A stretch of DNA of 64,000 nt, from assembly GCA_000002435.2 (NCBI GenBank), contig CM018792.1. The stretch is one strand, 5' to 3'. Source of the DNA: Giardia intestinalis (taxonomy: Eukaryota). Made by a program: the position numbers and the translations under genes. Position 1 is the stretch's first letter; the number at the start of each line of letters is the position of its first letter. Positions 11,701 through 59,471 of this stretch are shown piece after piece. The notes beneath the pieces are model-generated. The model did no database searches, was not told where the DNA came from, and worked only from the letters and a program-made list of their open reading frames with translations.

Positions 11701-14700
11701 AGGCTCATCAATAAATAATGTAGGAGACAGTGGTTTTTGGATGGAAAATTGATAGCAGCTAGGAATGCCATATGAATAAGCTATTGTACTGAGCACGAGA
11801 TCGTCGCGCAGCTTTGCCAATCTTGCCTGATGATCAGTCGCATTATCTTTGAAGTTGTCAGAGCACAACTTCTTGTATTGGTCTTTTATGTCCCCCTTTT
11901 TCAGCTCGTATAGTATTGCCCCGTCAAGTGAAATGTTGTCCAAAATCTGAGTCTGCGAGGCACACGACAAAGTTGAGAGTATTCCCTGCCCTATCTTGTA
12001 GCTCAGGTATGAAAATGTAATGCGCTGGCATCCAGGGTCCTTGTTCTCGAGAGATGGCACGACATAAGCAAACACCTCTGAAAGGCCGGGGCTTGATGAG
12101 CTTACAAACTTACCTATAAGGTTCTGGAGCGATCCATGGATAGAGGACGCTGCAGAGGCAAAGGCCAATGCACAATCAGATGCCGTAACGTTGAGGGTAG
12201 TCCATATGGAATCTCGTAGACAGAAACGTTTGGTAGCAACTACTTTGCTGATGTACTCACTAAGAAGTATATGCTTATCCCGCTGTTCATATGTCATAGT
12301 AGCCATTGGTGTATTGATACCCTTCTCCCACAAATCCAACAGGACGGTTATGTGCAAAGCTGAAAGGAGATAGCCTGATAGAGTGTAATGTCCAGCGGCA
12401 GAGGGACTGGCATTGCGATCTGGCGCATTAAGTTCAAACCCAAAGAGTGTGAGAAGCCGGCAAATAGATGCACGAAACGTTTGACTAATCTCAGAAAGAG
12501 GTCCTGGCGAACTAATATCAGACATTCTGCTAATCAAGTACGTCAAGGAGTATGCGTTCCATGCTGCAAAGAAGATGAACATGAGAAGATGTACAAGACC
12601 CAAGGTCGCATTAGGGGAGACATGGAAAAGAGACTGGATTGTCTCCTCACAGAACTTAAGGGTACTTATGTTTGATGCATCAGATATCCAGTGAGTGCCA
12701 TTAATGAACTGAGAAAATAAATCCGATTTAGGTGGGATCGACTTTTTGTCCAACCCCTGAAACTCGGGAAAGTACGCATACTTCGAAGGATTGGGGCTAC
12801 TAGGGGCTTTTTGAAAGGCTGTGAGTTCTCCTGAAAGATAAGCATCATAACTGTCCGGGGAAAAGTAGAGGGGGAAAGTATCTAAGTCATTAGAAGACCT
12901 CTTCTCATTGGTAGGGTTTGCAGAGAACTCTCTGCCAGGAACACAATCGCTGCGCTGCACAAGCTTAAATTGAATAAGGTTATACCAGATCAGACTAGCC
13001 ATGACCTTGGTCGGAGCGACAGAAAGGAGCTTATGCTCACCTCCAAAGACAAGGGTAAACTCCTTCCTCACCACTTCAACTATGCCCTGAAGACAGAACG
13101 GAAAAATGATCCGGATGAACAGGCTATAAACTCTTTGGATCACGTAATCGGTTATTCGCGTAAATGAATACACAGAACGCTCTGCAATCCACGCGCTTGT
13201 AATATGAGAGACGCTTGGGAGCGGAACAATAAACGATGGATCACTGTCGGAGAGCAACAGAGACACCTCCCGTTGCAGATTCATCCCACATGCCGACGGA
13301 TTCAGCAGAAGAGATGGATAGAAGGAAGTAGCGCTGTGGCTTGCATCCTGTGATAAGCATAGACTACTAGGTGGTATCTCCCTATCCATATTCCTGTGAG
13401 GTAATATCGGAGACAGTAAAAATTCCATCTCGTGGGGAATAGAACGAGGTACGATTGGTAGAATGAACTGCCTCTTATATACGTAAGTGATCGCCGGCAA
13501 GTGTTGCTGATAAAACGAATTGGACACTACTATAAGTACTGGGGTAATGTCAGAGAGATCGAACATTGCAGCTGAGATGGAGTGAAGATCGGACAGAGCT
13601 CGTACTTGGTAAACAATGAGGCTCTGCACACACAAGTCTGCATGTCGACCCAGTAACCGCTGGACTTCAGCATGGTCTGTTGTGCGGATAGCTGTCAACC
13701 CCTTCATATCACAGACCAGCTGAGCAACTTCACATGCAAATTCATACGAGCAGGACACCATCAGAATAGGGGAAATACTAATCTCAAGCATTTGCGAAAT
13801 TGTAACAGCAGTATAGATAAGCGTGAAGGACTGATTGTACTTGATCATGAGGAAGGAGAGACGGTTCTTATAGCATTGAGTAAAGAAAGGATAGAAATAC
13901 TGAACAGTATATCTATAGAACAGTGAATCGCTAATACCATTGATTTGTAGTGACAAGTATGCCTCTATGGCGTTGGTAAGGATGTCAGAATCTGCCTTAG
14001 GCAACATGAAGCTAGTCACTAAAGCAGTTCTGACCGACCAGAGTGTGTTCCGAAGAGCACTCGCATCCTTATTGTCTAACGGCACACGGGTCAGTAGGTA
14101 GTGCAATGCCGAGAGCGCTACAGATGTAGGAGAGTCTGAAGCAGATCTAGAGAGTATCATCAACTCGTCTACCTCACCGATAATGAAAGAGCTAATCTGT
14201 GCAAGACGCACTGAAGCAATCGAAAGAGCTGACAAACGACCAACCGGAGCAATCCACTTGACATCGAGAACGCTGGATAGGACCGTCATAGAACTATGAC
14301 TAATAATGTCGTATGCACTATAGAATGAAAAGTAAATCAGCTCTGGGGCATATATGTTGTCTAGAATAGATTTTGCATGCTTATCCACACACAACGGATG
14401 CCCGAACTGATCAATAAGTGGGGCAGGCGTCTCACTTGTCGGACATTGTGAAGAGGCTATCTTGGCACCTGCGCTACCTAAGTCCGCAGGTAGTAAGCAG
14501 TGCATAAATATCACAATCTTACCCATTCCATGGGGCTGAGGCAGCACGTCAGAGACACAAGCATCACGAATAGTGACGTAGGTGCCCAGGAAGCTGCCCT
14601 GGTCGTCAATAGTCATAGATGACCACTTGTTTCCAAATTCAAGACTTTCTATGGTTGCCCGAGCCTTCGCAGAGATGGGCGAGACCACAGCTAGGCCAGG

Positions 14701-17700
14701 GATTAGACCGGTAGGGCACTGCAGCTCTTTTAATATATGCGTCATCAGAATCTGCTGTTCCGTTTCAAGTAATTCAAAGCCGACAATCCCTACAAGAAGA
14801 CCAGCTGCAAGGCGGATCATCAGATGGACGATGTCTTTCTCGAAGGTGGTAGGAGTCATAAAAAGCAGAGTGGACTGGCACAACATAAGTCGTGAAAGTC
14901 GGCGCAAGATGAAGCGTGGAAAAGAACAGCAGTCTAGCTGAGGAATCTTGTCAAGTAGCAAAAAGACTATGTTTGTGCGTCTAAAGCTCTCCAAAACACG
15001 AAGCATGCTTATTTGAAGCTGGGGAGGAAGCACGCAATAGAGATCCTCTGCTTGAGGAGCTCCAATCCAGTGTGCCGACGTTTCGAAGGAGGTCATATCA
15101 TTAGACAGCGTAATATCGATGGACTGAGTGTTGGAGTCGTTTGTTGTGAATTGTAGAAATATCATAGGATAAATGGTGCAGCGCAAGTAGTCATCCATGT
15201 GTGCCCCAGCAAACTCAAACGTCTTGTTAGCAGACAAATAAGCAGCATGCGTGTGAGCAAGAGTCTTATCATCCGAGATTGCTTTCAGCAAGTGCGCAGT
15301 AGCTGCCTTGTGTCTGGCCTGCTCTCTTCTCAGTTCTACCCAAAGATCGTGCTCTAGCATAAGAAGCAGCATGTACCGCTCAATGATCCAAATATTCAAT
15401 GCATCTCCATACGAGGCGTTATACTTCACTCGCGGGGAATCCTTACATGCCTTGTTGCTCATCAGGACAAGGGGATCATGACACTGACTTTTAGCGTCTG
15501 CTCGTACCTTAAAAGTGAACAAAATAATATGCAGAAATAAGTAGGTACGCTGAAGAATAGGCCTCTGGTTCTTGAACTTCTCCACAAAATCCTCTGGGGC
15601 CATGCATCTTAGTTGATCCTCTAAAAGTATTTTCAAGGTTGTAGAGATAGCAACGCACAGCGCATCGTATACTGCTGAGTTAACTATGACAACAACGGAG
15701 TTGATAATAGTGTGGAGCTCAAATGCTAAGTCGCTTTTGCAGGACGGGACTGACGCCAGACATGCAAGCGATAAGAGATCGAGAGTTTGTTGCAATGGGA
15801 GACGGTCCATAGCAGCCACAATCTTCAGAAGCCCCGTCAGTACCTGGGAGGTACAGCGTAGCAGGGCAGACGATATTGGCTTAAAAAGGATATCTGGGAG
15901 AGAATACAACTGCGTAGGGCACCTCACTGGCTGCACTAGACTCAAAGTCTCACTGTGAGACACCAACTCGGTAATCTGCTGTTTGCCATTAGGAAAGAAC
16001 GGTGCGGTTAAGCTAGTAATACCCGGAAACGCATGGCTTCGAACCCACCGAGTGCAGATTGACAAATCCTTAATATTAGGTATAAATACATGAGACCCGG
16101 GTGCCCACAGAGGAAAAAGGAGACTCATGAAGTGGTGCGAGCCATTTAGGTAAGGCACTAGATGCTTAAGCTGCATTGTGTCATGCCCGCCTAAAGAAAT
16201 CGTTGGGGAGAACTTTGGTTGGTACTCAGTGAGTAGTAACGTACCTCGTTGCGCAACACTTTTGGGTGCCTTTGGTGGCTGCTGATTGCTACTCAGCAGC
16301 TTACTGAAGAGAAAAAGGTGTGGAGCAGTGATAAGACGATGAACAATAGTATCTAGATCTTTTAGCACTGATCCCACAAGTTTATAGACCGGTGCACTTG
16401 TTGCACAACAAACCAGTGGTGTACCTGTGCTGAGCTTTGAATTGATAAGCGACGAGTACTGCCCATATATGTTGAAAAGCGTCGTAGCCTCTTGCATGGT
16501 GAGAACATTTACCGAGTATAGCAGTGTTGGATGGTCTGCCATTGACCTAACACCTCGGTTGATTACGCTTGCTTCAATAAATGACGCGTACCCGTACATA
16601 GTCAGTGCGTACCTAAAGAGGCGAGGAACGTAACAGAGACTGTGGTAAAGAATGGTTGTAGCGCGCAGAGCAGCACGCAGGTCTTGGATGCGCCGATGAA
16701 CCGCGTCTGAATATGTCGTGCAGAGTAGAAGGCTAGAATATGGAAGTAGGGGAAGCGGCAGACAGTCTAAGCTCTGTACCACTGAAAGGATTGCACCCTT
16801 CAGTGTTCCGACTTCTGCTACCGGAATCTTATCATGATGGTGTCGAGGCCCAGCCGCCACAGAAGTTAGAATAGATTCGGACTTTGAAAGCTGGAGAGAG
16901 GAAGCTTCAGGGACAAAACGGACTAGGGGAATTGGACACCTGGACAGATCGCTAGAATATGAATTTTGTGAGCGCGGATTGGTGTATCCCGGGGGCGAGT
17001 CGAGCTGTATATGATCGATAGCAGATATGAGAACGCCTCCCAGCAGCTTTTCTGCCTCTTCCAACTCTGCAATCGCATGACTATCTGCCTGGGCCTTGAT
17101 GTAGAGGTAAGCAAGAAACTCCGAGGCACATGCAGTGCTGTGAATAGCCACAAGGATATCATCAACAGGTGGGGAGTCTGGTATGTGAAGATACGACTGT
17201 ATCTCTTTCTTGTGGAAAGTAGTAAAGAAAGGTGCACCCAAAAGATCCAGGCAAACTATGTCGTTGGCTATGTGCTGGAGAGAGGATTGGACGAGTAGAA
17301 GATAGCGCCTCCAGCCAGATGGAATAACTTTTGCTAGCATTGAGCCAGTTCTCGCTAGTATGGAAAACCCGCCACCAGAAAACCCGTAGCATTCATGACG
17401 TGGTTCCCAACTTCTAAGAAGTGTGCTCCCTTGTGCAAAGGAGTTCATATACAGCTCAGTAATATGTTGCATATTATCCACCAGAGGCTGAGTCCACAGG
17501 GAGAGTACTTGGACCGCATTTAGAGTTGAGTCTAGTACTGAGTAAAGCCTGGGAATAAATGGTAAAAGCATAGAAAGGTCCCAAGACCCTGCTTCTTGAA
17601 GAAACGTGTTCAGCTGTATGGGGTAGACAGTCGCGGTATAGAAAACCTGGATGCAGAGGTGTAGCTGTTGCAATGATGGTGCAGAACTTAAAAAGCCCCT

Positions 17701-20700
17701 TGTCTGAAGCAGCTCATCAGTTGAAACTAGTGCACCACGCCATCTCTCCAATAGCGTTTCAAGGGAAAGTAATTCAACACTGACGTAATATAATACCGAT
17801 AGAAAGTGTGCTACTGAAAGCTGATTGGATAATGAATCGTGTTGTGGTTGATGGAGAGATTGGGCCGACTTGAGTCGGAACGGAATTATGCTGTCGTTCA
17901 TAACGAAGGTCTTCAACATAGCATCTTCATGACAAATACTTTGAAGCAATATGGGCGTATCCAGATCAGGAGAAGGAAGATTCAGAAGCGAAGTTGCGCC
18001 GAATATGCTATTGAAAAATGCCAGATCGGCATCAGAATCCGCTGGGAGACCGTCTATTGTCTTAGATCGATATATAGGTGGCACAGTGAACATCTTCATT
18101 ACAGTGAAATGATCTTCATATGAAGATAGAGAGACCTTCTCACAGCCCTCAGCATCGGGAATAGTCAAGGAAGAAACGGTGATAATCTGATCAAGAAGCA
18201 TCCTGGAGGCAGTCTCCAGCCAATCTTCAGTGATAGCTGTGAGCTCCAGAAACCGTGCTCGTCGCTGCTTGAAGATTGCAACTGCCATAGCTTGCTTCTC
18301 CTTGAGAGACAGGATACGTTGTAACAGTGAGAATGCCGAGTCTTCCAGCTCATCCACAGTGAAGACTGATCGAGTGTCAAGGAAGCGTGCGCACAAGCTC
18401 TCGTATTGCACGATGGAAGCATCATATATAAACGAGTACAGCTCATGTAGCTTAATCCCAGCAAGCTGATCTAGCAAGTTCTGCTGTGCAAGAATACTGT
18501 CAGGGCTGTCTATAGGCCTTTGCAAATCTCTTTCGAGACTCTCCAGCTCACAAGATAGTGTCTTTGTGATCAGAATAAGAGAGGCATACTGTATGTATAA
18601 ATAAAGATAGCGATAGTAGGTTAGGAGGGATGCCATGCTTTTCTTAAGCTCGTGAAGTGAGATGGCAAAAATGGTCTGATAGACATTGGCAGGGAGAACG
18701 TGGAATCCATTGCCATATAGCGAAATTCCATCCAGCGTTTTGTCGATTACTGAAAAGTCTAGCTGCGGGATTAGTTTATGAAACTGTGGGTGCAGAAGGC
18801 TATATTTGGTTAAATTACTGGACACATCAGGGTCCTGAATACTAAGAAAACTTCTTGCTGATAGAAACGGGCAATCTGGAGGATTCGGATCAACCTGTCC
18901 CTGTCCCTGTACGTGTGCACGCAGTATGTGAGAACTGCCAAACTCTGAATATAGCGATGTTTCGGGATCATAAAGAGAGATGTTTCCGACGTCTTTTCCG
19001 TAGGTTGAAATGTAAGCATACACGTTCTTCATAGAACTAGTTGTAAGCGCACTCTGAATTGCGCTATAGCAACTCCCAATCATAAGCTCATCCATCACCA
19101 TGTCGATGACAAGGCGGGCAGTGGATGCAATGCTCTCAAACCTGTCATTGACCATGCGGTGGTCCAGGATGTTATGGTCAGTAATGTGCAGAAAGCTGCA
19201 ATAACCGAAGTTCTCAAACGCTGTGCCAGTCATAAGTGAAAACTGCGAAGAATCCAAGTACAGTTCTTGGAGGCTGGTTCCTGCCAAAAAGGTGTCCTTA
19301 AAGGTAAGGGGTTTTGGCAAGGCCAATGCTTCTTGTGTGGAAAGCAGCGTAGAAAGTGACGATGACTCAGTTAACGTGTTCCAGAGACGCAGAAACTCAA
19401 CAGCTTCTCCTTCTAAGTTGCTGGAGGGAAAGATCCCCATGTTACAAAAATGCTTGAGAGCGTCGAGCTGCCTGTCCGTAACAGTCAATTTTCCTGCGCT
19501 CCGTGTTGATTTGCGTGTGGAAGAAAATCTGGAGGAGCAGGAGCCCTTAGCCGAAGCCACCTCATCTTGAAAAGTATCTGAGTAGAAATCTATTAGCGAA
19601 AGAGACAATGCGCTTGTGTTCTTGTTTGGTGAAGCCGGGTTCTCTAACTGGAGCTTTATATTGAGGGTAGTTGGAAAGAAGTAGTCGAAATAGAGGGAGA
19701 CCATGATTGGTAGAGTGAAGAAAATGGTTGAAAGGTCTAGTGCAAGATTCCATAAAGGTACCAAAGAGCGCTCAACCTGCGGCACGTAGCTAATCAGCAG
19801 CGAAGAAACCAGATCGGATGTCAAGGCAGGATCCATAACGTCTGCCAAAGAGTGTGGCTGAGAGTAAACTACTATGAGCTGGTGATCAGAAGCATCACAG
19901 TTTGAAGAAAAATAGTACCCATTAAGGCGATTCTCTTCAAGAAGGCTCTCCAGATCGTCTGTTAGTGCCGTTACTTCTTCAGATTGTTTAGACTCAACAA
20001 GAGATTGAGTGGAATGCTGCACTAATTTAAGGTCTTCTTCTGAGAGAATCTTGCTAGCATCATTCATTTTCCAAATAACTTGCTGCAGTTCATAGTCTAG
20101 TGGAATTTTGACGCTCTTCAGACGCTCGGCGTAGTCTGCGTCTAGCACAGCGAGAGATGCATACAGCTGTGCATTATCGGCCTTTGCAGTCAAGTAGAGA
20201 TCATCAATGGTGAGAGATTTGTTCCTAGTAAGCTGATCGCTGTCTCGCTCGATAGCTAGCCTCATTGTCTTCTGCTTCTGCTTGTGGATATCCTCTCGCT
20301 GGCTCCTTATTCTGCAAACAGAGTCTTCCAACTGCTGTATGGAGTGAAAGTAGTAGCCATATAATGTCCTTGCTTTCGGAGAAACAATGTCCACACTACA
20401 ACGACGCAGGTGACGCGTAAACGTTATAGTCAGATTTAGCGTAACCCGATAGAGAACTCCTGGAAAGTCGAGGCTTGATGGGGAAAACCCAAGGTGGTAC
20501 AAGCGGCGCAAAATCACCCGTGCAGCAGATGGAAAGGCGAGATTGTCGTGCATGTCAGTATTACTAGTAGCTATGCAGACACCTCCCCGGGGGGCTGTAA
20601 CACACAGATCCTCTTCTGAGTCCGCAAACTCAGACTCGCTATTGTGACTAGAATCACTATTACTGCCAGACAAGCCAGAAATTCCCAAAACGTCCTTTTC

Positions 20701-23700
20701 ACCATGGTCTATTTTTGCGGCTAAAGTCCTCCGTCCACGCTTGAGGCGTTTAATTGCTCTGCGCTCCAGTAGATGTCGCTGATCAGAGACGTCGGTGTTG
20801 GCAATAATAGTACTGGTGAAGAGGCTTGTGAAATCCAAGAGAAGTGGATACATTGCAGCCGAAAGGTGTCTTGCAGCAATCAGGAAGGTATCTGGAAGAG
20901 TTCGAAATGGACAGGATAGCACGATACGTAGTTGTTGCTGCAAACCTACGCGTGATGGGTTGTAACTTAGTCTAGCATAATCCTTTTTTACAATTAGTCC
21001 AAACACGTCCTCCATGCGGGGGGCTTGACACTCTAACGGGAAGCCCGACTCAGCCAACTTCTGTAAATGGGGAATTGCCATATATTGATGCTTTATGCAG
21101 GCTTCAACATAATCGTCATAGGAATCCGTAGGTCTCGGGGTAGGAAGTAAGATCTGTCGAATCAGTTCGTTAGTCACGGTTAAATTACGGCCCGCCTGAC
21201 GTGTATTAGCGCGAGATACAGCTCTTGAAGCGGTCTCTCCTCTATGGCGAATAGCCGAACTATAGTCTTCTTCAGAGTAATAGTGCTTCTGAAATTCTAA
21301 ATTAATCAAGTAGCTTATTGTACGATAGTAACATTTCCCAGCGATAATTGTAAGCTGAAAGGGTACTATGCTTCGCCAATAAAGAAAGAAGAGGGACTTA
21401 ATGCATAAAAGCTGATCTGTGTGCTCGTGAAGGAGGATTTTAACGATGAGATTTGCCGCCAGTACAAGCTTATCTAGTACCTTAGTGTAATTATAGCTAC
21501 GTAAGTGAAGAGCGCTCTTGAGGTATGTGCTTGCCAGTTCTGACAATAAGCCCCGGTCCTCTGGGCAAACGTTTCCAAGTCGTGTCTGGAACGCATCACC
21601 TTCTGTGTTACAGTCACAAACACATTGCAGGTGTAAGCCAGAAAGGTCGGAAACATCTGTTCTTAGCTGCAGGAGAAGCTTTTGTAGCATTGACGCAATC
21701 GCGGAAAACTCGCTGTTGAAGAAATAGTTGGTCAGTTGGCCTGTTCTGGAACAAATGTCCTGCAGAGCAGGTAAAGCAGTGGACCGATAAGTACAGCCCC
21801 AGGTTACACAGTTTCTTAGGGCAGTAACGGCCTTAAAACGGGCTATCAGGCTTGATTGTCGATCCAAGACAGACATGAGAATGGGTTGATAGCGATCCTT
21901 TAAGGCACTGGAGAAGTGGTCGAGACTGTCCGATGCATTCAGCTCATCTCTAATACAAGTCAAAGAGTATCTCGAATAGTAAGAATGCAGCGAGACAGGA
22001 GCATATCGCAGTAGGCCAAGAACATTCAACTGAGTAGATATCTGTAGGCGCCGATCCTCTGGCATCGTGAGCCAGTTATCCCCTACAGACAAGAGAGTAG
22101 AAAGACTTATTTTCTGAACCCCTGCAAGGTGCTTGTTGTGGACCGCAGTAAGATGGAGTTTATATTCATGCAAATAATCCACTTGCAATTGCCTCAAGCG
22201 CTCGGGGAAGATGCCCATGGCTTGCGCCACAGAGTTAATGCGCCTCAACGTTCTGAAGAAAACGGGGTGTTGCAAATATCCAGTGTCCAAGGTGATATCG
22301 TACGAAGAATCAGCCTTGGAAATTTCCCAGTTGCAAATTGTATAGAAATTCTCCTGGGGCTCAGGGATAATGGTCTTAACAAAATCATTAGCGAGGGCAT
22401 TGGAGAGCTCGGATTCAACAACGTCCTTTGCTGAGAAAAGCTCGTCGATGGAGCATTCGGAATCAGTTACAATTGGGATGCTTGATAGCCTTTGAGGAAG
22501 AGAACTGGCTCTACACTGCCTTCTAGACTTCAAACTAGAGTGAAACATGTTCCTGGCACGCTTCTCGATCGTTGTGCGTTGAAGAGTGAAGTCATCCATT
22601 ATGCTTCCAAGCGTCTTGTCCTGGCCACAGCTGAGGGATAGATCATGTAAAGCCGTCACACTCCCTGATAGTGCAGATGTCTGAGGAGTCATATTAGACA
22701 AGGCTTGCCTAGCGTTCATTAAGTGCCGATCGTGATATGGAGAGGTGTTCCTGTTAATTCCATGAAGATTGACACTAGAGGAGTGGAGCAGGGCTTCTCT
22801 GAACTGAGGGGAAGCACGAGAAGAGGAATCTAAAAGGGGGTTCCGTATGACCTCCATACTTTGTCTAGTAAACGGATTGGTGACCGTAAAAAGTGCCTCA
22901 TTGATGCTGGAAGGCATCAGAAAAGGGTTAGCGCCATAATCAACAGGGTATTCTTCTTCTAATAGACGCATGCTTGGAAGTAGGGTCAGACGAGACACGG
23001 GAACACTATATGTTTCCCTATGAAGAACTAAGTCAGACTTTTGCAATCTGGCTTTGTAGAATGCCAATTCATCAGGTAGATCCAACAAGCTCGTCTCTGG
23101 AATTGTCGTTGCACTATTTGATTTGGCAACAAGATGTACATCCACACTCGCTCTATTGAGCCGCAGATCTAGTGACTCCAATGTTCCCACAAGAAACTTT
23201 ACACTCATCTGCGAAGTGATGCTCTCGCGCATTTCTGAGCAGTGTGCATGCATTGTCGACCTCGCTGGTGCTGCTGGCACATACAAGGACAGCGAATTGA
23301 CTGTCGGGGTGTCCAGGTTATGAATTAGAACGAGCTGAGCATCACATCCGTTATTATCATAAGCAGAAGGCAGAGATGGAAGGCAAACCTGCAGACCTAC
23401 ATCAATTTCCTTCAGCTCTTGGCAACGAGCAAACGCAGTGCGACGCCCATCAGGGCTAGCGGATAAAGCTGCAAAGTTACTAGATAGGATCCCCGAGGAT
23501 CCTGACTCTCTGTTAGACAGGTTGTTGGACCCTAACAAAAGTGGCCGTGGTCGAGTCGACGCATGGTGTGTTGATAAATGGGCCCTGAGCGGAGCGGATG
23601 GACTCTTAAGTGAAGATGTAGAAAAGTCTTTGGTTAACCGTATCGGAGCCATTGATGGGCCTCCGTGAAAAGTAAGATGCTTTAAAAATCGGACTTTTTT

Positions 23701-23706
23701 GTTCAT
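2782..23706 (-). CDS. Giant hypothetical protein (6974 aa as maximal ORF), uninterrupted single exon. Leu/Ser-rich and probably a helical-repeat scaffold. No recognisable catalytic domain. One isolated Walker-A-like GDESMGKTS (plus-strand 11596-11625). The true start may be the internal ATG at 23650-23652 (M19).
   Basis: A 20.9-kb ORF with no stop in a region of ordinary GC content, ending 26 bp from the convergent gene at 2755. The ATG at 23704-23706 is followed immediately by a non-AT-rich sequence. M19 lies 52 nt from the divergent E2 start and the two share an AT-rich element (tttaaaaatc). Confidence 0.85.
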   Translation of the reverse strand: MNKKVRFLKHLTFHGGPSMAPIRLTKDFSTSSLKSPSAPLRAHLSTHHASTRPRPLLLGSNNLSNRESGSSGILSSNFAALSASPDGRRTAFARCQELKEIDVGLQVCLPSLPSAYDNNGCDAQLVLIHNLDTPTVNSLSLYVPAAPARSTMHAHCSEMRESITSQMSVKFLVGTLESLDLRLNRASVDVHLVAKSNSATTIPETSLLDLPDELAFYKARLQKSDLVLHRETYSVPVSRLTLLPSMRLLEEEYPVDYGANPFLMPSSINEALFTVTNPFTRQSMEVIRNPLLDSSSRASPQFREALLHSSSVNLHGINRNTSPYHDRHLMNARQALSNMTPQTSALSGSVTALHDLSLSCGQDKTLGSIMDDFTLQRTTIEKRARNMFHSSLKSRRQCRASSLPQRLSSIPIVTDSECSIDELFSAKDVVESELSNALANDFVKTIIPEPQENFYTICNWEISKADSSYDITLDTGYLQHPVFFRTLRRINSVAQAMGIFPERLRQLQVDYLHEYKLHLTAVHNKHLAGVQKISLSTLLSVGDNWLTMPEDRRLQISTQLNVLGLLRYAPVSLHSYYSRYSLTCIRDELNASDSLDHFSSALKDRYQPILMSVLDRQSSLIARFKAVTALRNCVTWGCTYRSTALPALQDICSRTGQLTNYFFNSEFSAIASMLQKLLLQLRTDVSDLSGLHLQCVCDCNTEGDAFQTRLGNVCPEDRGLLSELASTYLKSALHLRSYNYTKVLDKLVLAANLIVKILLHEHTDQLLCIKSLFFLYWRSIVPFQLTIIAGKCYYRTISYLINLEFQKHYYSEEDYSSAIRHRGETASRAVSRANTRQAGRNLTVTNELIRQILLPTPRPTDSYDDYVEACIKHQYMAIPHLQKLAESGFPLECQAPRMEDVFGLIVKKDYARLSYNPSRVGLQQQLRIVLSCPFRTLPDTFLIAARHLSAAMYPLLLDFTSLFTSTIIANTDVSDQRHLLERRAIKRLKRGRRTLAAKIDHGEKDVLGISGLSGSNSDSSHNSESEFADSEEDLCVTAPRGGVCIATSNTDMHDNLAFPSAARVILRRLYHLGFSPSSLDFPGVLYRVTLNLTITFTRHLRRCSVDIVSPKARTLYGYYFHSIQQLEDSVCRIRSQREDIHKQKQKTMRLAIERDSDQLTRNKSLTIDDLYLTAKADNAQLYASLAVLDADYAERLKSVKIPLDYELQQVIWKMNDASKILSEEDLKLVQHSTQSLVESKQSEEVTALTDDLESLLEENRLNGYYFSSNCDASDHQLIVVYSQPHSLADVMDPALTSDLVSSLLISYVPQVERSLVPLWNLALDLSTIFFTLPIMVSLYFDYFFPTTLNIKLQLENPASPNKNTSALSLSLIDFYSDTFQDEVASAKGSCSSRFSSTRKSTRSAGKLTVTDRQLDALKHFCNMGIFPSSNLEGEAVEFLRLWNTLTESSSLSTLLSTQEALALPKPLTFKDTFLAGTSLQELYLDSSQFSLMTGTAFENFGYCSFLHITDHNILDHRMVNDRFESIASTARLVIDMVMDELMIGSCYSAIQSALTTSSMKNVYAYISTYGKDVGNISLYDPETSLYSEFGSSHILRAHVQGQGQVDPNPPDCPFLSARSFLSIQDPDVSSNLTKYSLLHPQFHKLIPQLDFSVIDKTLDGISLYGNGFHVLPANVYQTIFAISLHELKKSMASLLTYYRYLYLYIQYASLILITKTLSCELESLERDLQRPIDSPDSILAQQNLLDQLAGIKLHELYSFIYDASIVQYESLCARFLDTRSVFTVDELEDSAFSLLQRILSLKEKQAMAVAIFKQRRARFLELTAITEDWLETASRMLLDQIITVSSLTIPDAEGCEKVSLSSYEDHFTVMKMFTVPPIYRSKTIDGLPADSDADLAFFNSIFGATSLLNLPSPDLDTPILLQSICHEDAMLKTFVMNDSIIPFRLKSAQSLHQPQHDSLSNQLSVAHFLSVLYYVSVELLSLETLLERWRGALVSTDELLQTRGFLSSAPSLQQLHLCIQVFYTATVYPIQLNTFLQEAGSWDLSMLLPFIPRLYSVLDSTLNAVQVLSLWTQPLVDNMQHITELYMNSFAQGSTLLRSWEPRHECYGFSGGGFSILARTGSMLAKVIPSGWRRYLLLVQSSLQHIANDIVCLDLLGAPFFTTFHKKEIQSYLHIPDSPPVDDILVAIHSTACASEFLAYLYIKAQADSHAIAELEEAEKLLGGVLISAIDHIQLDSPPGYTNPRSQNSYSSDLSRCPIPLVRFVPEASSLQLSKSESILTSVAAGPRHHHDKIPVAEVGTLKGAILSVVQSLDCLPLPLLPYSSLLLCTTYSDAVHRRIQDLRAALRATTILYHSLCYVPRLFRYALTMYGYASFIEASVINRGVRSMADHPTLLYSVNVLTMQEATTLFNIYGQYSSLINSKLSTGTPLVCCATSAPVYKLVGSVLKDLDTIVHRLITAPHLFLFSKLLSSNQQPPKAPKSVAQRGTLLLTEYQPKFSPTISLGGHDTMQLKHLVPYLNGSHHFMSLLFPLWAPGSHVFIPNIKDLSICTRWVRSHAFPGITSLTAPFFPNGKQQITELVSHSETLSLVQPVRCPTQLYSLPDILFKPISSALLRCTSQVLTGLLKIVAAMDRLPLQQTLDLLSLACLASVPSCKSDLAFELHTIINSVVVIVNSAVYDALCVAISTTLKILLEDQLRCMAPEDFVEKFKNQRPILQRTYLFLHIILFTFKVRADAKSQCHDPLVLMSNKACKDSPRVKYNASYGDALNIWIIERYMLLLMLEHDLWVELRREQARHKAATAHLLKAISDDKTLAHTHAAYLSANKTFEFAGAHMDDYLRCTIYPMIFLQFTTNDSNTQSIDITLSNDMTSFETSAHWIGAPQAEDLYCVLPPQLQISMLRVLESFRRTNIVFLLLDKIPQLDCCSFPRFILRRLSRLMLCQSTLLFMTPTTFEKDIVHLMIRLAAGLLVGIVGFELLETEQQILMTHILKELQCPTGLIPGLAVVSPISAKARATIESLEFGNKWSSMTIDDQGSFLGTYVTIRDACVSDVLPQPHGMGKIVIFMHCLLPADLGSAGAKIASSQCPTSETPAPLIDQFGHPLCVDKHAKSILDNIYAPELIYFSFYSAYDIISHSSMTVLSSVLDVKWIAPVGRLSALSIASVRLAQISSFIIGEVDELMILSRSASDSPTSVALSALHYLLTRVPLDNKDASALRNTLWSVRTALVTSFMLPKADSDILTNAIEAYLSLQINGISDSLFYRYTVQYFYPFFTQCYKNRLSFLMIKYNQSFTLIYTAVTISQMLEISISPILMVSCSYEFACEVAQLVCDMKGLTAIRTTDHAEVQRLLGRHADLCVQSLIVYQVRALSDLHSISAAMFDLSDITPVLIVVSNSFYQQHLPAITYVYKRQFILPIVPRSIPHEMEFLLSPILPHRNMDREIPPSSLCLSQDASHSATSFYPSLLLNPSACGMNLQREVSLLLSDSDPSFIVPLPSVSHITSAWIAERSVYSFTRITDYVIQRVYSLFIRIIFPFCLQGIVEVVRKEFTLVFGGEHKLLSVAPTKVMASLIWYNLIQFKLVQRSDCVPGREFSANPTNEKRSSNDLDTFPLYFSPDSYDAYLSGELTAFQKAPSSPNPSKYAYFPEFQGLDKKSIPPKSDLFSQFINGTHWISDASNISTLKFCEETIQSLFHVSPNATLGLVHLLMFIFFAAWNAYSLTYLISRMSDISSPGPLSEISQTFRASICRLLTLFGFELNAPDRNASPSAAGHYTLSGYLLSALHITVLLDLWEKGINTPMATMTYEQRDKHILLSEYISKVVATKRFCLRDSIWTTLNVTASDCALAFASAASSIHGSLQNLIGKFVSSSSPGLSEVFAYVVPSLENKDPGCQRITFSYLSYKIGQGILSTLSCASQTQILDNISLDGAILYELKKGDIKDQYKKLCSDNFKDNATDHQARLAKLRDDLVLSTIAYSYGIPSCYQFSIQKPLSPTLFIDEPRTAIVVLIAACSTSAMLYPSGVFLEVCGDESMGKTSLIEIAELLMQDTFGPWARLTETATASAGEICNAFHSYYDKQGTAALFLNKLSRWSAGVLHVPNTSKQDDRDSLFSQLAQLSASAPPRQRTLGDGSHIVGEFSLMNTTLIVERRHDTRLSTHSCKETIDKITVSLPQLTLDHVLSLVQLAFSSNRSICYEMLNKAVSFLFSSYPDLFSNYDFLADLQRCLFWFPQLPSSSALETEAFVIREAYAHCTVCALAAALRNVPSMSNAKLVSILDGLLPAIGARALNICSLQALAPQWQVDVIETYLQAHNKEDRRALEQDDGQPPTTGQSENNDESKPSQVPRAKELTTEMHDLRAFYNTCSAAVAGIPDGLCYLIGILFQKVSQDDNSLVNSVESLPRREDTKRFDSAAPLSSKIYSQFKVNPLEVGCACGCININLDWLQRFPRYFELFTADLYLEHVAYDRQLAEAKMRHIPPPDTPRYISPSLALRVFEMHTESKAMGEHIVKVISCLQEYLRSPLPCIHPTHNLYSCLWKLFLWGMLMSPAKLSRLILNSMRDWPTESSGKYIDAYRVIQAHTTSGSFSDEATDHIIDELLSLHTDSPCLLSLALTEKEPPMSKEPQRPSNFGVSLDLRLSDLKDSFSLQPASSSVILPHNYLPVQWPTTPLLPINLSTSIITIPCYRLYTPFADYKHFQQISYLLQALEGYTSFLDLKLEHLYLSNYSNDTPALSLASDQLLSSRTKGSPVCGGSAKDCRGRLNDRVLVDIDTIVASVSHVSAGEKEKSTDKPSNRTAESFVKNLSIAVLELSAYLSSFDSDFLATLMLLRTAVCLAAGVNPIYFLYTINHTTAHSISQFGLLAPLAESLLRTPSTKYFDSGVSSGAAFTCMYTDEPLLHTHLPSILSVPGHLEHYVMHTFNKNCGTMSEFAHRFEQGGGMKGLLEQGESLMKKYLIEPSCVTILSSMDILMSAATGWPALSCLLQTTITPGNLVRALFTSEELSIILASLSLNAGLGRHLKAEELHSILASNLKIYVLHNGSIDCLATMSHPLDIRNFGIKKLLRSPDDTFDGSLAMFFDVLSKFSIRSTKIDFPSVHTISLNPLFPVAKYTAEQLLIHCKVNACQLSKVANLPEQLSINWEAHKVAVLLSCLSLHRACSRSSHNWQVPLQAYIKLTVDAIGMIFSRAQQYYANVNSINSLFKAYAYMTREAPLQGLKTHDSLYPDIYVTRFNNAQDSILPIESMSSKYLQYFVGNLVSHDSKVFGELCYMRNCLYSCLEACKGYSKLLASILGHVCYEAPVLVACMLYGVTGLLDRPTSDGARTTALEILIEALQQDGLTIMLPSSRSRSSSSSSASNRLKLFSVWTEHDLQSTDLFFRHFQVSLCLDTPLFLAEILFRDTLNNHEVYRHLLYAGMLFLLLGRRIFLTYSVLVPPLIFTLVASLRRFETPFCRLYEALVGVSNTADPAHSLRSTNQALYTYIHHIRQRRVELSVRQPYKQFCASVAKALAESDKAIVFSDVGARQVPQNNYSLLRKLLLLAATTRVDARQQITLGSQITYLFQPLSEYIFIISLSPDYDPSLTPVSVLHALHQAEMHRSGMLGSVIFLCNLSPCPGYDPEPAECAAVTDMLTESVFGPEFTSLSILHRRSTMFAKLSLSLNTFIDTFHSYLLEYGVGVFPINESFRSEKTIMTAEAYTQRRAEIEVMLSDFSSAYSTGSNSFQSTNRGYKQLTCAHSSGAKAASSVSILLDLLREVCLLFYALIPGADRALPLMDLQNRSSYPIGDEVSQFSVGQSVNILNEIQLGYLLRSRWHVWIEECATLTCDLLRYLRTQAKRDPTLLIETNRAALTPFQRTLCGQLTSFYNSTIKTELKRFFSAHSPLKSVSTASSIDNQCDSRDHADQPTTLLQTNFIADLITFRYDSLKYPVFYYIVLYPRILIDFVLQQILRYMLSRLTSTSALPHAHIHKLFLTLCTLSRLGPLEDELCNDRSTISRGDLEVAILHNDLRLLMDAQPHFGSQQTHDIDIKLLTCLCPQSLEEMASFIHTCLLSPPLPSHSTTLPDPSINYALDKIVPSQFSITKEAKQLFLSCVVISRFSEDSVDLLSYLAENPAAILVCSQYSCLLVTLVSLYLLDVGARSSLEHLLDRDPSVAAKRCADLEHCIASLMDAELEKDRKHLNLTYVPLLFQKPTMKGMYLAFLLSVLLRPESFTIASTLLLQIWGQYTSPLGHGPNLSNKPSIFVSEQPQRPRLPVMSHEEKHCAFPAGFLQVDEKGKALPETCICDSVVSLLRAAHAMIDSTLTLVSKRHELTPVSNNLTNQQVSSLVCDAHACGSSVEAIEEVVEHCRCYFPLTIVFSEGEMFSLDELFALDRRGYGDVTQYSFGDVPIVYQFPSSWTDFHRHSTVCLLSSPACLADELENLLCLINMHQYFNTTGMPAFPVWLIIPQHTVNRAIDAMGARLSHILEQLLYLSRPIIVRYKQPSVPSDLYKAALTHYFLQTETRRAPTIHQLDLLVVGLLHTCTHRTLQLGIESGPGILRYLDFLFTAQHGADQAPCPALLFTRSLNRFLFLCSGDPRYFMNDRARCAVQSCFEYYIVLKVLGIKGSLPLHGSKQVLATRVCRSQVQYKWRKSSLRLAEKEKDPISSNTVVVEGLCSQEQWRGSNANHGTDGKLDSENTPRLLKDIMALISPDRLIESVISPLLTLELPSHAPIKCLTGSKIVSIFDRVLKTLLANEEPSSMRGPSYGELAEFRSILNGHVNTTKNSMLHSLSCRDIPVCSVQSSLIQMLLDPACKIEEGAWKVSSVQKENGLQTLLSILQLSLALHRNVPAERVCFLAFLNDPPGRLYLTSSGVLTFADTDAHRSCTELYRFPICLQLTNLVFSAGTYDSSIQSLVSATAEQEQGYVHTISAYITAVALPEACPLSTIQPPAGYISISIQVGYIPLSWLLLPQSEDASVEDPPVINIADV
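23653..23704. promoter_or_regulatory. Putative bidirectional AT-rich initiator region. It is shared by the RAD6-like E2 gene (plus strand) and the giant gene (minus strand, if it starts at M19).
   Basis: The sequence aaaagtaagatgctttaaaaatcggacttttttgttc lies immediately 5' of both candidate start codons. Giardia promoters are short AT-rich elements within about 50 bp of the ATG. Confidence 0.4.
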
Positions 23707-46229: not shown

Positions 46230-46270
46230 GCCTTCCACCAGGAGTGAATTCTTTTGGCGCTTGTACGCTC

Positions 46271-46615
46271 ATGGAGAGTCCTTGCGGTTCGGGGGCGCGG
46301 CGGCTGGACGTGCTTGCGTTCATGCCAGACGAGCGCACGCAGAGGCTCCTCGTGGCCCAGAGGCAGCAGGAGTTCTCGGCGGCCGTTGTAGCACATCAGC
46401 CGCGGATCGCCGAGGTGCGCGTCCAGATGCACAACCTGCGGGACAGAGAGGGCTACGCCGTAAGGTATGGGGTCACGGCGGTCCCCACTTGGGTCTTTCT
46501 GCGCGATGGACAAGAGCTCGGGAGAATTGTTTGTGAGCCCCGAGGCTCGTTTGCAGAAGAGATAGGAAGAATCCTGGCCGCATCCACCCAGGAGCAAGAC
46601 AGAGAGAACAGCTAG
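46271..46615 (+). CDS. Thioredoxin-like paralogue lacking the CxxC active site (114 aa). Tandem duplicate of the preceding gene.
   Basis: YGVTAVPTWVFLRDGQELGRIV parallels YGVKKVPSWVVLRGGKEIGRIV of the upstream gene. LAFMPDERTQ replaces HGPWCKDCQ. The ATG at 46271 is the first Met in a frame that is open from 45980. Confidence 0.6.
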   Translation: MESPCGSGARRLDVLAFMPDERTQRLLVAQRQQEFSAAVVAHQPRIAEVRVQMHNLRDREGYAVRYGVTAVPTWVFLRDGQELGRIVCEPRGSFAEEIGRILAASTQEQDRENS

Positions 46616-57200: not shown

Positions 57201-57398
57201 GCACAGAGCGGGCACGATAGATGCGTCTTGCTCCTACGAGAGCTTGAGGCTCAGCTCGTGGACAAACGCGGATTGACTGCCCTAGATTATGCTTCCCAAC
57301 TAAAGGAAGATAACATCGATCGTGAACAGCAGGAAAAGCACGCTCTTTGTGTTTCATATTTACAAGCCGGCGGTTCTGGTAAGGACAAGACTAATTAG
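54201..57398 (+). CDS. NEK-like pseudokinase (very GC-rich N-terminal about 270 aa) fused to about 15 ankyrin repeats (1065 aa), of the 'protein 21.1'/NEK-ankyrin type.
   Basis: LETEWCPDGSLAGLL (hinge), YAAPEV, and DVWALGCVLVELCT (NEK subdomain IX) are retained, but HRD is replaced by AHGRVSPSAVLL and DFG by LGDC. Repeated TALMxAA.G...CV..LL modules run from about 55300 onward. The ATG lies 3 bp after the PanK stop. Confidence 0.82.
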   Translation: MAQELISDGYRDAVFVDRGSAGALFRAVRVQDGVVVAVRALDPERIGVARCEELAREHTAAAALPHPRLLACGPAVSEPDAVLLETEWCPDGSLAGLLRRQRRAGPFSEDRIWELAAQLAEALAFLHSPLKARGVLAHGRVSPSAVLLAGPRAKLGDCLRAPSPPGPYAAPEVARGGPPTPAADVWALGCVLVELCTLRAPCWDPAALAADPVPALERCPDTLRAAAAACLCVDPARRISAATFVTFPPALWALHRVEQAAPSAVPRVQLSSALLRSSGIAQGFMSHLGQQENVFSAVAQNDPEMLKSAIQSLGDTAPLAQLLMEACDKKAYKVMPHLCRLVAATKTPITLSWWKGNQVTRKTLLMLAVETQAIEMIERNMDSLCAMYEDCTALMIAAKEGKYRCLMHLLCELGISSSTGKSALMYAAEYGFSDCVSLLLPEVGKEDDHGLTAHAYATKNGHAGCIAILSQYESETAHSKTDLCKLSAIRQSEDGSEPSAPELPVLDASRSSRCTQSKSRIHKPEPMLVEPGPVNQLLLSKTTASTGRFIASTSLSPDDPITTILSPMKSPDSKQPRLVKSDTINELHALARESQDEVVKPLLATRSVSQANRQPHPKTSSDYKKTSKPGSRSHSKERDTLENAILRNNPSAVVLHLHDFAANPQPYVDLVFTEKKFKVLPTLCRYLAKKHLKAKIRTRVATPVEELTSLMRAVINCDHQGVKEHIREAGNEYVGWLSYTDTTGKGYILSNCTALMIAAARGDAECTKHLLCEMGVYLNSKCTSLTYAILGGHHECVRLLLLESDISGCTMLMRCCFFNNHKEIPNYLTEAKAAIGPGRTALMIAAQLGNKESVEALVDYEGGLQDKDGITALYLASSNNQLDCIKLLLEKEKRIKTNVGWTALMAAAQKGHADSVQLLLEAESGYQKSDGWTALMLAAQAGHADCASLLASKEACMTKPDGWTALMIAAQEGHHRVVKVLMKSEAGRQQKTGISALMLAAQSGHDRCVLLLRELEAQLVDKRGLTALDYASQLKEDNIDREQQEKHALCVSYLQAGGSGKDKTN

Positions 57399-57927
57399 AC
57401 ACACAGAAGAGCTCATTGCAAAGAGCTATGCTGACATTTGTAATCTCAGTAAATGGCAGTGGCGTAGCAAATAGCGCGTCTTCGTCTATCCGAGGGTCTA
57501 AGTACTTGCGCAGTTCTTGTTTGAAAAGCCTATTCCGCTCCTGTTCAGAAGCAACGGCTGCTCTTTCAGCTGTTCGAAGTCTGGCATATTCCCCGTTAGA
57601 TGCCAAGCCTTGAATAGATGCCAACTCTTCGCTAGCTAACGCTGCCTCCTGAAAGATTCGACGATCTCTTCCAGCCTCTGCCGAAGCGAGGAGAGCTCGA
57701 TGAATCTGATTAATCTGCTGTTGCTGCTGATATCTGTGACTGTCTGCAGGGATCCGGAAATGGCTATACTGCTGTATGGACGCCTCCACGGCGTTATTCT
57801 TCTCAGGCTTGATAACATACGGTAGCTTTATTGCTTCGGAGAGTGTCACACCGATGTTTGCCTGCTTCCTCGGCCTGCCTCTGCCGGTTTGTTTGCGCAC
57901 AATGAATGGAGCTGAGAACACCTCCAT
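57391..57927 (-). CDS. Hypothetical protein with an AT-hook (GRGRPRK) (178 aa). Its 3' end overlaps the convergent NEK-ankyrin gene by 8 bp.
   Basis: ATG at 57925-57927. The AT-hook motif is near the N-terminus. Confidence 0.55.
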   Translation of the reverse strand: MEVFSAPFIVRKQTGRGRPRKQANIGVTLSEAIKLPYVIKPEKNNAVEASIQQYSHFRIPADSHRYQQQQQINQIHRALLASAEAGRDRRIFQEAALASEELASIQGLASNGEYARLRTAERAAVASEQERNRLFKQELRKYLDPRIDEDALFATPLPFTEITNVSIALCNELFCVSN

Positions 57928-58279
57928 ACCTTCTAGAAATGCTAGTTAAAAAATACAAACGACAACACGTCTAACAGTCTCGCGTTCAGAGACCCCTCAG
58001 CCCCTTCCGAGCGGTCTGTCTTGGGGCGAGGAGCGGAAGACACACGATCACGATCTTTCTCAGCGCTTTTTGGGCGGTGAGTTTTCTCCGACTCCACGCC
58101 CATCGAGATTGGCAACTAAGAGCCCACGGAAATCCCTGGAAGGATCATCTTCTCCCTGCTGCGCTGATACGCTGTTGCAAAGGGCATTAGATCGTATCTG
58201 CCCTAGTCCAGGTCCAGCTGCTTATGACACTTCGCGAAGCGCCACTGCCCTGAGCACTCGGTATACAAGCACAGCATCC

Positions 58280-58669
58280 ATGTCCAAGGTTGGGCGAAGG
58301 TGGAGGGATGGTACACCAGGTCCTGGTCCAAAATACCTTCCAAATCTGATAAAGAGGTCTTCTCCGCAATACCGTTTCTCTACTACAAGCAGATTTCCTT
58401 GCCCAGAAGATGAGGAGAATCAAGTCAGTTCACTATCATATAGACCGAATCACTTTGCATGTAGCCAGTATGGCTTCGGGACGCTGTCTAATAACCCAAA
58501 ACTGTACGCAATCGACAGATTCAACGGAGTGCACCACACAAGCAATGGTCCGGGACCGGCTGGATACTTCCTAAATACCAAGTTTACGCTTGAGACCTCC
58601 GGAAAGTCCTACATGTCTAATTCGCCTGCCACACGCAACAGTTACATACTCAACAGTCCATTCTTCTAA
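58280..58669 (+). CDS. STPGR (sperm-tail PG-rich repeat)-like protein, probably flagellar. The ORF is open from 58070 and encodes a further PGP-Y motif upstream of the first ATG.
   Basis: Motifs SPGPAAYD, TPGPGPKYLP and GPGPAGYFLN are present. The first in-frame ATG is at 58280. The ORF-track start at 58070 is TTG. Confidence 0.55.
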   Translation: MSKVGRRWRDGTPGPGPKYLPNLIKRSSPQYRFSTTSRFPCPEDEENQVSSLSYRPNHFACSQYGFGTLSNNPKLYAIDRFNGVHHTSNGPGPAGYFLNTKFTLETSGKSYMSNSPATRNSYILNSPFF

Positions 58670-58670
58670 A

Positions 58671-59471
58671 TTAATTAGTGCTCATATCTTCTACCTCGAG
58701 GGCCTCTGCTCTCTTTGACTTCTTGATTCTAAGAACCAGCAGGACCAAGAGAATGACCAACGCGACGATTTCTACTATGACGATTACTGTAAAGACAACT
58801 ATCTGCTGAGAGTAATTGGACACCACTTGACACTTATCGCCAGATACTCCTGGGAAGCAATTACATGAATATGTGTCAGAAAAACTTTCGTCGGGCAAGA
58901 AAGCCCTCTTGTACTCACAGATCCCGTAGTCCTTGCAATAGTGAATTGTATTATCTGGTGCTATGTACACATCGCATGCATTAATCTCACAGTACCTTCC
59001 ATTATATCCTGGAAAGCACTGGCACGTCGCGTTTTCCTGCGTTGCATAGCATATTCCATGACCACTACACGCCGTTGAGTTATAAACGCAGTTGTTGTGC
59101 ACGCACAGTAAACCAGAAACGTTCTGAGTAGCTTTGTTGCACAACTGACAGGTTGCTCCCGACCTGCTGACAACGCAAACGCACTTATGGGAGCCATCAT
59201 CTTGCAGCTCGCAAACTCCTACGGTGGAGTCCACGCAGCCCCCATCCTGCGTTGTGAGCCCACAGGTATCTGTTTGGCAGTCATCACCGCCGTAGCTGAA
59301 GGGGCAGCTACAGATCCCACTGATGCACTTCCGACCCGTTAGAGTCTTGCCATTAGCGGCCATGCTTGTACAATCACTATCACTGGTGCACTGCTTGAGA
59401 TCCGAAAGCTCAGGTTGGCCCCCCTCAAGAGTCCGTCTCAAAGGTTTTACGGGATAATTGACGAAGGTCAT
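58671..59471 (-). CDS. EGF-repeat single-pass membrane protein (266 aa) with tenascin-like EGF modules and a C-terminal TM segment.
   Basis: CSGHGICYATQENATCQCFPGYNGRYCEI and related EGF modules. TM segment IVVFTVIVIVEIVALVILLVLLVL. ATG at 59469-59471. No obvious N-terminal signal peptide. Confidence 0.7.
   Translation of the reverse strand: MTFVNYPVKPLRRTLEGGQPELSDLKQCTSDSDCTSMAANGKTLTGRKCISGICSCPFSYGGDDCQTDTCGLTTQDGGCVDSTVGVCELQDDGSHKCVCVVSRSGATCQLCNKATQNVSGLLCVHNNCVYNSTACSGHGICYATQENATCQCFPGYNGRYCEINACDVYIAPDNTIHYCKDYGICEYKRAFLPDESFSDTYSCNCFPGVSGDKCQVVSNYSQQIVVFTVIVIVEIVALVILLVLLVLRIKKSKRAEALEVEDMSTN

Follow-up and report, generated by a model that had tools for sequence, protein, structure and literature searches.

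In the present study, we examined a 64,000-nucleotide (nt) stretch of contig CM018792.1 (assembly GCA_000002435.2) of Giardia intestinalis (duodenalis) WB, assemblage A1. This whole stretch is called the window here. The study centred on the gene GL50803_0027635, which is annotated as a hypothetical protein of 129 amino acids (aa) (KAE8303665.1). On comparative grounds, the gene is mis-annotated. An extension of 107 codons upstream of the annotated start ATG is, with near certainty, translated in all the G. intestinalis lineages examined, and the gene is 236 codons long. The extended reading frame does not begin with an ATG. The comparison of orthologues leans slightly towards transcription from an AT-rich element and translation from a conserved ACG codon, which would yield a 236-codon protein.

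The open reading frame (ORF) of the gene lies on the plus strand and ends at the TAA codon at 58667–58669. The first-pass annotation of this DNA had placed the first in-frame ATG at 58280, had read the "M" of the ORF list at 58070 as a TTG codon, and had described three PG-rich motifs (SPGPAAYD, TPGPGPKYLP, and GPGPAGYFLN), the first PGP-Y repeat being upstream of any in-frame ATG. All of these were confirmed when the sequence was checked. The frame had also been described as open upstream of 58070, and it was found to extend to 57950, where it is closed by an in-frame TAA (Table 1). The anomaly that had been placed at 58070 is real, but its placement did not hold, as the coding sequence (CDS) reaches 57959, 107 codons upstream of the annotated ATG. 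The TTG at 58070 has no special status and is not conserved as TTG. The extension is rich in Ser, Thr, Pro, and Arg, for example in SPTPRPSRLATKSP at 58085–58126. The tryptic peptides predicted to be specific to a start upstream of 58280 are SETPQPLPSGLSWGEER, THDHDLSQR, FLGGEFSPTPRPSR, SLEGSSSPCCADTLLQR, ICPSPGPAAYDTSR, and YTSTASMSK. The region 57928–58680 was base-identical in nine independently assembled assemblage-A data sets (Logan), except for one substitution at 58381 (contig L012), and a tenth assemblage-A assembly was a 99% variant with the same features. Since nine independent assemblies were identical, the sequence is not an assembly or sequencing artefact. The sequencing frameshift that had been offered as one explanation was rejected on this ground, and because the ATG-less frame was kept in four deeply diverged lineages.

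Orthologous DNA was compared among WB, assemblage B (contig L001), assemblage E (P15; contig L016), and a fourth Giardia lineage, here L002 (contigs L002–L004, Logan). The ratio of nonsynonymous to synonymous substitution (dN/dS) was calculated by the Nei-Gojobori method (NG86), and the variable sites were tallied at each codon position and compared by a chi-square test. The synonymous divergence (dS) between the four lineages ranged from ~0.5 to >2, which is large enough for constraint to be easily visible. In the 106 codons that separate the annotated ATG from the ACG at 57959, dN/dS was 0.09–0.22 (0.14–0.16 in the WB–E pair), with 38, 30, and 83 variable sites at the 1st, 2nd, and 3rd codon positions, respectively (chi-square p = 9e-8). 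The annotated part, from 58280 onward, showed dN/dS values of 0.10–0.19 and 39, 41, and 89 variable sites. The 78 codons upstream of the position of the assemblage-B ATG were found to have dN/dS values of 0.07–0.20 with 28, 23, and 63 variable sites. Only one of the six frames, that of this ORF, was free of stop codons in all four lineages, and the other five were closed. The length of the ORF was conserved at 236, 236, 236, and 234 codons, and no indels were found. Antisense ORFs were considered as the source of the constraint and were rejected, as every minus-strand frame contains stops in every lineage. It is this protein-level purifying selection that indicates the translation of the extension. 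The earlier suggestion that the N-terminal motif is non-coding by coincidence was rejected by the dN/dS of ~0.1–0.2, the 3-periodic substitutions, and the six-frame stop counts; the orthologues of A, E, B, and L002 all keep the upstream frame in a coding-like state.

In WB, E, B, and L002, no ATG was found between the upstream in-frame stop and the ACG. The stop is located three codons upstream of the ACG in WB, none in E, five in B, and 10 in L002. The first in-frame ATG was present at codon 80 in B and L002, at codon 105 in E, and at codon 108 in WB; where databases give an "M" before codon 80, gene callers have relabelled a TTG or GTG codon. With the frame closed upstream and its first ATG no earlier than codon 80, 105, or 108, translation must start without a genomic ATG. 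Strong protein conservation starts at the invariant peptide SRSETPQP (codons 8–15, 57980–58003), and in E the in-frame TAA is immediately 5' of the ACG. The start must therefore lie within codons 1–7. In these codons, the ACG of codon 1 was the sole near-cognate codon common to all lineages, and the others varied with the lineage (ATA in E and L002, CTG in B). The third base of the ACG was invariant, whereas just 29% of the comparable four-fold sites were invariant in the four lineages. Of the Thr codons in the gene, ACG is the least used. The conservation of the third base and the rarity of the codon lend modest support to an ACG start. Two other routes into the frame were tried and rejected. 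For readthrough from the in-frame ATG at 57902, this ATG was absent in B and L002, and E carries two stops. For frameshifting from out-of-frame ATGs, the first of them (at +85 in E, B, and L002) follows conserved codons and opens an ORF of 9 codons only.

Transcription start site sequencing (TSS-seq) of WB has described an AT-rich consensus of 11 nt, in the middle of which lies the start nucleotide; its variants include AAAATAAAATG and AAATTAAAAAT (PMC3792122). Giardia transcripts begin within this consensus, and their 5' untranslated regions (UTRs) are mostly <20 nt (PMC3792122). A crude weight matrix was made from the consensus variants of that study. The best plus-strand site near the gene was TAGTTAAAAAA, the centre of which lies 11 nt upstream of the ACG. 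Its score (Table 1) can be set beside a median of 4.8 for 19 long ORFs or likely gene starts in the window and a median of -6.9 for random 40-nt windows, 1.6% of which score at least 6.2. E, B, and L002 each have an equivalent element (score 4.8–5.7) at 3–11 nt before the ACG, and the elements of all four lineages score in the range of genuine gene starts in the window. No initiator-like element was found near the internal ATGs, the best score within the first 330 nt of the ORF being -6.6. In assemblage B, the context AAAACAAAACG is the frequent initiator-plus-ATG 11-mer AAAATAAAATG with an ACG replacing the ATG. The layout appears to be that of an ordinary Giardia gene start reading ACG for ATG, with a predicted transcription start. 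The genes of the TSS-seq study with short leaders (PMC3792122) are alike in the AT-rich element and in its distance to the first codon; the difference is in the codon, which is ACG and not ATG. Elsewhere in the window, the first ATG of a giant ORF of 6974 aa (23706..2782, minus strand) had no initiator-like element within 40 nt and scored -15.1, the worst of the 19; the true start of this giant ORF may be elsewhere.

The outgroup P0052, of 221 aa, is the closest distant homologue; its ORF opens with a genuine ATG, upstream of which an in-frame TAA was found. When aligned, the N-terminal MYSSMHLAARR of P0052 pairs with the TTTHLTASR that heads the Giardia ORF, which places it within two residues of the ACG position. 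As this N-terminus matches the ACG position, the ancestral start would have been here, with no sizeable upstream exon missing. The alignment suggests that the ancestral protein began at the position of the ACG.

We propose that the AT-rich initiator-like element would provide the transcription start, near 57948, and that the resulting leader would be ~10 nt long, which is typical of Giardia mRNAs. The ribosome would initiate at the first conserved near-cognate codon, the ACG at 57959–57961, presumably by means of the initiator Met-tRNA. On this view, the ATGs now annotated as starts would encode ordinary internal methionines. We give about an even chance to the fuller statement that a conserved gene of cytoskeletal type is translated solely from a cap-proximal ACG on a leader of ~10 nt. 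A non-AUG start was the best supported, by comparative sequence evidence, of the four explanations that had been offered for the missing ATG. Several points weigh against the proposal. ACG is usually an inefficient start codon in other eukaryotes. Codons 1–7 were less conserved than the rest of the ORF, so that conservation alone cannot resolve the position of the start. The AT-rich element could mainly serve the divergent neighbour GL50803_5859. A conserved RNA structure downstream of the ACG, of a kind that could favour a near-cognate start, was not supported (RNAalifold, -10.3 kcal/mol over 122 nt, negligible covariation). P0052 is a distant homologue, at 30% identity and without shared synteny, and is for this reason counted as supporting evidence only. 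No record of the 5' end, the initiation, or the N-terminus of GL50803_0027635 was found in the searchable literature and the TSS-seq supplements, and non-AUG initiation in Giardia has not been reported in the searchable literature, in which nothing was found on Giardia ribosome profiling.

Among the alternatives to the ACG start, we regard as unlikely a 5' exon, spliced in cis or in trans, that supplies the ATG. The head of the ORF would then be the 3' end of an intron, ending for example at the AG of CTAACAG (57971–57977). Most validated Giardia introns are present within the first 3–130 nt of the CDS (PMC10711314, Table 1), and missing start codons revealed several Giardia introns (PMC4085374). 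Conservation is lowest in the first seven codons, and a YAG at 57975–57977 was found in all lineages, preceded by CTAAC or CTGAC in A and B. Introns of Giardia have strict signals: the donor is [G/C]TATGT, and the branch point and acceptor are fused in the motif CT[AG]ACACACAG, with invariant spacing (PMC10711314, PMC6679479). Against a spliced exon, the fused motif had zero exact matches in the window. In CTAACAG, the CTAAC abuts the AG without the 4-nt spacer, and the CTRAC is lost in E (CTAATAG) and L002 (TCAATAG). The sole conserved donor-like site nearby, GTATGG at 57774, is antisense to the coding sequence of GL50803_5859 and gives phase-2 exons. The acceptors at 57978–58001 need phase 1 or 0, and this site is incompatible with every acceptor at 57950–58010. 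A conserved upstream ATG with a donor was found within 1.1 kb only inside or antisense to neighbouring CDSs, and none was in phase.

The RNA-level surveys point in the same direction. A survey of 70 RNA sequencing (RNA-seq) libraries yielded 42 junctions, which comprise all eight validated introns and 34 candidates (PMC10711314). GL50803_0027635 is absent from this catalogue, and none of its seven junctions on chromosome 4 maps within the window. A transcriptome-wide search for trans-splicing added one extra case only, the p68 helicase gene (PMC5224939). At the present locus, the 3' motif of a trans-spliced intron half is absent, and just ~30 nt are available between the promoter-like element and the conserved coding sequence. 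The N-terminus of P0052, moreover, coincides with the position of the ACG. The cis-spliced genes of Giardia (ferredoxin 27266, dynein light chain 15124, Rpn10 15604, and Sec61beta 60002) have their introns just after the start codon and are alike in that they are small genes with an apparently missing or misplaced start, the classical mark of such introns. GL50803_0027635 is unlike them in having no in-phase [G/C]TATGT donor, no CTRACACACAG acceptor, and no reported junction. The idea that a rare intron supplies the start, which the first-pass annotation had raised, is disfavoured for these reasons, namely the lack of splice motifs and of an in-phase donor and the absence from the RNA-seq intron catalogues. 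Elsewhere in the window, CTAACCCCACAG at 45683–45694 (plus strand) was found to match the fused branch-point/3' splice-site motif nearly, with one extra base. It is located in a GC-rich block at 44–50 kb, and just downstream of it (45911–46615, plus strand) a 120-codon ATG-less open stretch is followed by an ATG ORF of 114 aa.

A non-AUG start at another position, either a lineage-specific near-cognate codon in or just before the first codons or several starts, is improbable to a similar degree. Other near-cognate codons do exist, namely ATA at 57953 in WB, TTG in B, and ATA at codons 2 and 6 in E and L002. The assemblage-B annotations already use TTG, and seven codons are too few to fix the start by conservation. 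None of these codons, however, is conserved, whereas every lineage has the ACG and keeps its third base, and the TAA adjoining the ACG in E rules out any start upstream of the ACG in that assemblage.

It is very improbable that the current annotations are right, with the start at the ATG at 58280 in A and E or at codon 80 in B and with the upstream 320 nt as a long 5' UTR. On this explanation, the first PGP motif of A and E would be the untranslated relic of a start loss, from ATG to ATC at 58196. A few Giardia genes do have reported 5' UTRs as long as 146–406 nt (PMC3792122), and codon 80 is indeed ATC in A and E and ATG in B and L002. Purifying selection in the upstream region, however, equals that of the annotated CDS in every pair, and the 78 codons before the ATG of B are equally constrained. 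For this latter reason, the change at 58196–58198 is best read as an internal Met/Ile substitution and not as the loss of a start. This frame is open in all lineages with the five others closed, a scanning ribosome would, in E, B, and L002, be captured by the out-of-frame ATG at +85, and the promoter-like element is absent near both ATGs.

An RNA-level change that makes an AUG, such as C-to-U editing of the ACG, or an assembly error that hides a genomic ATG is hardly credible: the ACG is one transition away from ATG, and ACG-to-AUG editing creates start codons in plant organelles, but no mRNA editing system is known in Giardia, and nine identical independent assemblies and an ACG conserved in five lineages stand against an assembly error.

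The first-pass annotation had assigned the gene to the sperm-tail PG-rich (STPGR), flagellar type. This assignment is plausible through a profile link to a Hexamita protein; it is weak on Pfam, where the score is below threshold. The gathering score of the Pfam family SHIPPO-rpt (PF07004) is 20 bits, and the scores obtained were 17.3 bits (E-value 0.011) for WB, 16.0 for assemblage E, and 17.3 for P0052, recurring at repeat 1; no hit to PF07004 was found in the B and L002 orthologues. The comparator, a "SHIPPO 1-like" protein of Hexamita inflata, scored 47.5 bits on PF07004. When a profile of the Giardia orthologues was searched against 1.84 billion representatives, three relatives only were found, namely the Giardia cluster, P0052 (E-value 8.9e-7), and Hexamita. 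The hmmsearch match to the Hexamita inflata SHIPPO 1-like protein had an E-value of 2.6e-5. An hhalign comparison with the Hexamita protein gave a probability of 88%, with an E-value of 2.9e-6 over 135 columns, and paired the repeats one to one. Homology to an accepted member of the SHIPPO family is thus moderately supported at the sequence level.

The PSPGPAAY of repeat 1 is invariant in the four Giardia lineages and is retained as PS.GP.AY in P0052. In repeat 2, PGPKYLP is invariant, P0052 included, and (S/G)PGPKYLP is found across the four Giardia lineages. The repeats are preceded by a basic region of 82 residues, rich in Ser, Thr, Pro, and Arg, that has no family match. The product is best described as a putative short and divergent protein of SHIPPO/STPGR-like type, in which three repeats are clear and one is degenerate. 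Its alignment, of five sequences, is shallow, and the repeat-rich chain probably takes an extended form. With the members of the family (ODF3/SHIPPO1, DAP9148, DAP103164, and the Hexamita protein) it shares PGP-x(1-3)-Y repeats ~35–40 residues apart in a small basic protein. It is unlike them in its sub-threshold Pfam score, its few repeats, and its unmatched N-terminal region.

The ODF3 protein is a chain of PDB entry 8snb, which we take to be a structure of the sperm doublet microtubule. In Giardia, the two recognised SHIPPO proteins, DAP9148 and DAP103164, are found at the ventral disc, axonemes, and median body (bioRxiv 10.1101/361105). From this localisation and the presence of ODF3 in 8snb, a microtubule- or axoneme-associated role can reasonably be inferred by analogy. 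No solved relative of the GL50803_0027635 protein was found by PDB sequence searches, and no localisation or proteomic record of GL50803_27635 was found in the searchable literature. In a metagenome scan, just one generic multi-repeat STPGR gene was found, in an unrelated eukaryote (contig L017); its protein matches the ODF3 of 8snb with an E-value of 1.4e-5.

Table 1. Features of the GL50803_0027635 locus and of related contigs; positions are those of the window unless a contig is named.
Feature	Position	Strand	Basis or remark
GL50803_5859 (hypothetical, 178 aa)	57391..57927	-	Divergent neighbour; its ATG is 31 nt from the ACG
AT-rich initiator-like element TAGTTAAAAAA, in the 31-nt spacer shared with GL50803_5859	57943..57953	+	Matrix score 6.2
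In-frame TAA closing the frame upstream	57947..57949	+	Sequence
Proposed full CDS, 236 codons + stop, 26.0 kDa, pI 9.7	57959..58669	+	Sole frame open in four lineages
N-terminal extension, 107 codons, not in the WB and P15 models, holds repeat 1	57959..58279	+	dN/dS and codon-position counts
Candidate non-AUG initiation codon ACG	57959..57961	+	ACG in A1, the A variant, E, B, and L002
TTG shown as "M" in the mechanical ORF list	58070..58072	+	Aligns to TTA in B and L002
ATC (Ile) in A and E, ATG in B and L002 (start in GL50581_533)	58196..58198	+	Lineage alignment
PG-rich repeat 1, SPGPAAYD	58205..58228	+	Best Pfam SHIPPO-rpt stretch
GL50803_0027635 (KAE8303665.1, hypothetical, 129 aa), annotated start ATG	58280..58282	+	WB annotation
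PG-rich repeat 2, TPGPGPKYLP	58313..58342	+	Aligns to Hexamita SPGPKYNP
Degenerate repeat 3, SSLSYRPN	58427..58450	+	Aligns to Hexamita ASPTQYKPD (hhalign)
PG-rich repeat 4, GPGPAGYFLN	58547..58576	+	GPGPAGYF invariant in four Giardia lineages
53-aa antisense ORF call	L005–L014, locus 1325–1486 (~ window 57942–58103)	-	Logan gene calls
Canonical STPGR/SHIPPO protein, at least 10 PGPG-x-Y repeats	L017 (JGI Ga0073921_1004613), 1201–2043		Frame runs off the contig

The divergent arrangement of GL50803_5859 and the SHIPPO-like gene was also found in E, B, and L002, and the flanking genes were common to all. The other neighbours are a notch-like EGF protein (58671–59471, minus strand), a DDI1-like protease, and an ankyrin/RING "Protein 21.1". 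In the divergent spacer, assemblage A contains a 13-nt insertion, CTTCTAGAAATGC, at 57930–57942 relative to E, B, and L002; this insertion distances the AT-rich element from the ATG of GL50803_5859 and not from the ACG.

The gene was found to be annotated in different ways in the different assemblages. The orthologue of P15 (GLP15_3974) is annotated as in WB, with 129 aa. The orthologue of GS, assemblage B (GL50581_533), is a model of 157 aa that begins MHPSPGPAAY. The WB and P15 models are without 45% of the protein, one repeat included, and the GS model is without a third of it. The assemblage-B records ESU41266.1 and KWX11952.1 are models of 241–244 aa with a TTG start, named "tRNA pseudouridine synthase A". 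They were found to be the long form of the orthologue of window 57959–58669 (contig L001, 2128–2853), and the C-terminus of KWX11952.1 is frameshifted (…RNRLHTQQPIFQIN). No pseudouridine-synthase domain was detected by Pfam in these long-ORF records, and the name therefore looks like an annotation-transfer error. The gene calls on the Logan assemblage-A contigs L005–L014 omit the SHIPPO-like gene and contain the 53-aa antisense ORF instead. The gene callers used on these contigs appear to be blind to ATG-less genes.

Most known cases of non-AUG initiation are N-terminal extensions beside an AUG isoform, reached by scanning ribosomes on long leaders. The Giardia ACG would differ from them in being the principal start, ~10 nt from the cap. 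The comparative criteria usually applied to a non-AUG start are constraint ahead of the first AUG, an in-frame stop, and a conserved near-cognate codon. Non-AUG initiation is well known in other eukaryotes (PMC5666671). With the near-cognate starts of eukaryotes (PMC5666671), the present gene shares the constraint upstream of its first AUG, the upstream in-frame stop, and the conserved near-cognate codon heading the conserved region. Leaders are minimal in Giardia. The set of initiation factors is reduced, and four subunits only of eIF3 are identifiable (PMC4705826).

Should the ACG start be true, no earlier example of non-AUG initiation would be on record for Giardia in the searchable literature, and a near-cognate codon would be the sole start of a gene and not a minor alternative. 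Some of the Giardia genes with long 5' UTRs, or some short hypothetical ORFs, would then be truncated models of ATG-less genes. Seven WB genes are reported to have unusually long 5' UTRs of 151–406 nt, namely GL50803_29096, 29595, 27713, 28770, 31608, 15887, and 32766 (PMC3792122, Table 1), and these are candidates for an ATG-less coding extension. Annotation pipelines that accept only ATG would miss or truncate such genes, and the study of cross-assemblage constraint upstream of annotated starts offers a cheap search for more of them. Our result is a solid correction of the annotation together with a testable mechanistic lead, and not a demonstrated new mechanism. The selection of start codons in Giardia is poorly understood, and a conserved ACG start would be a genetically tractable probe of it at the native locus.

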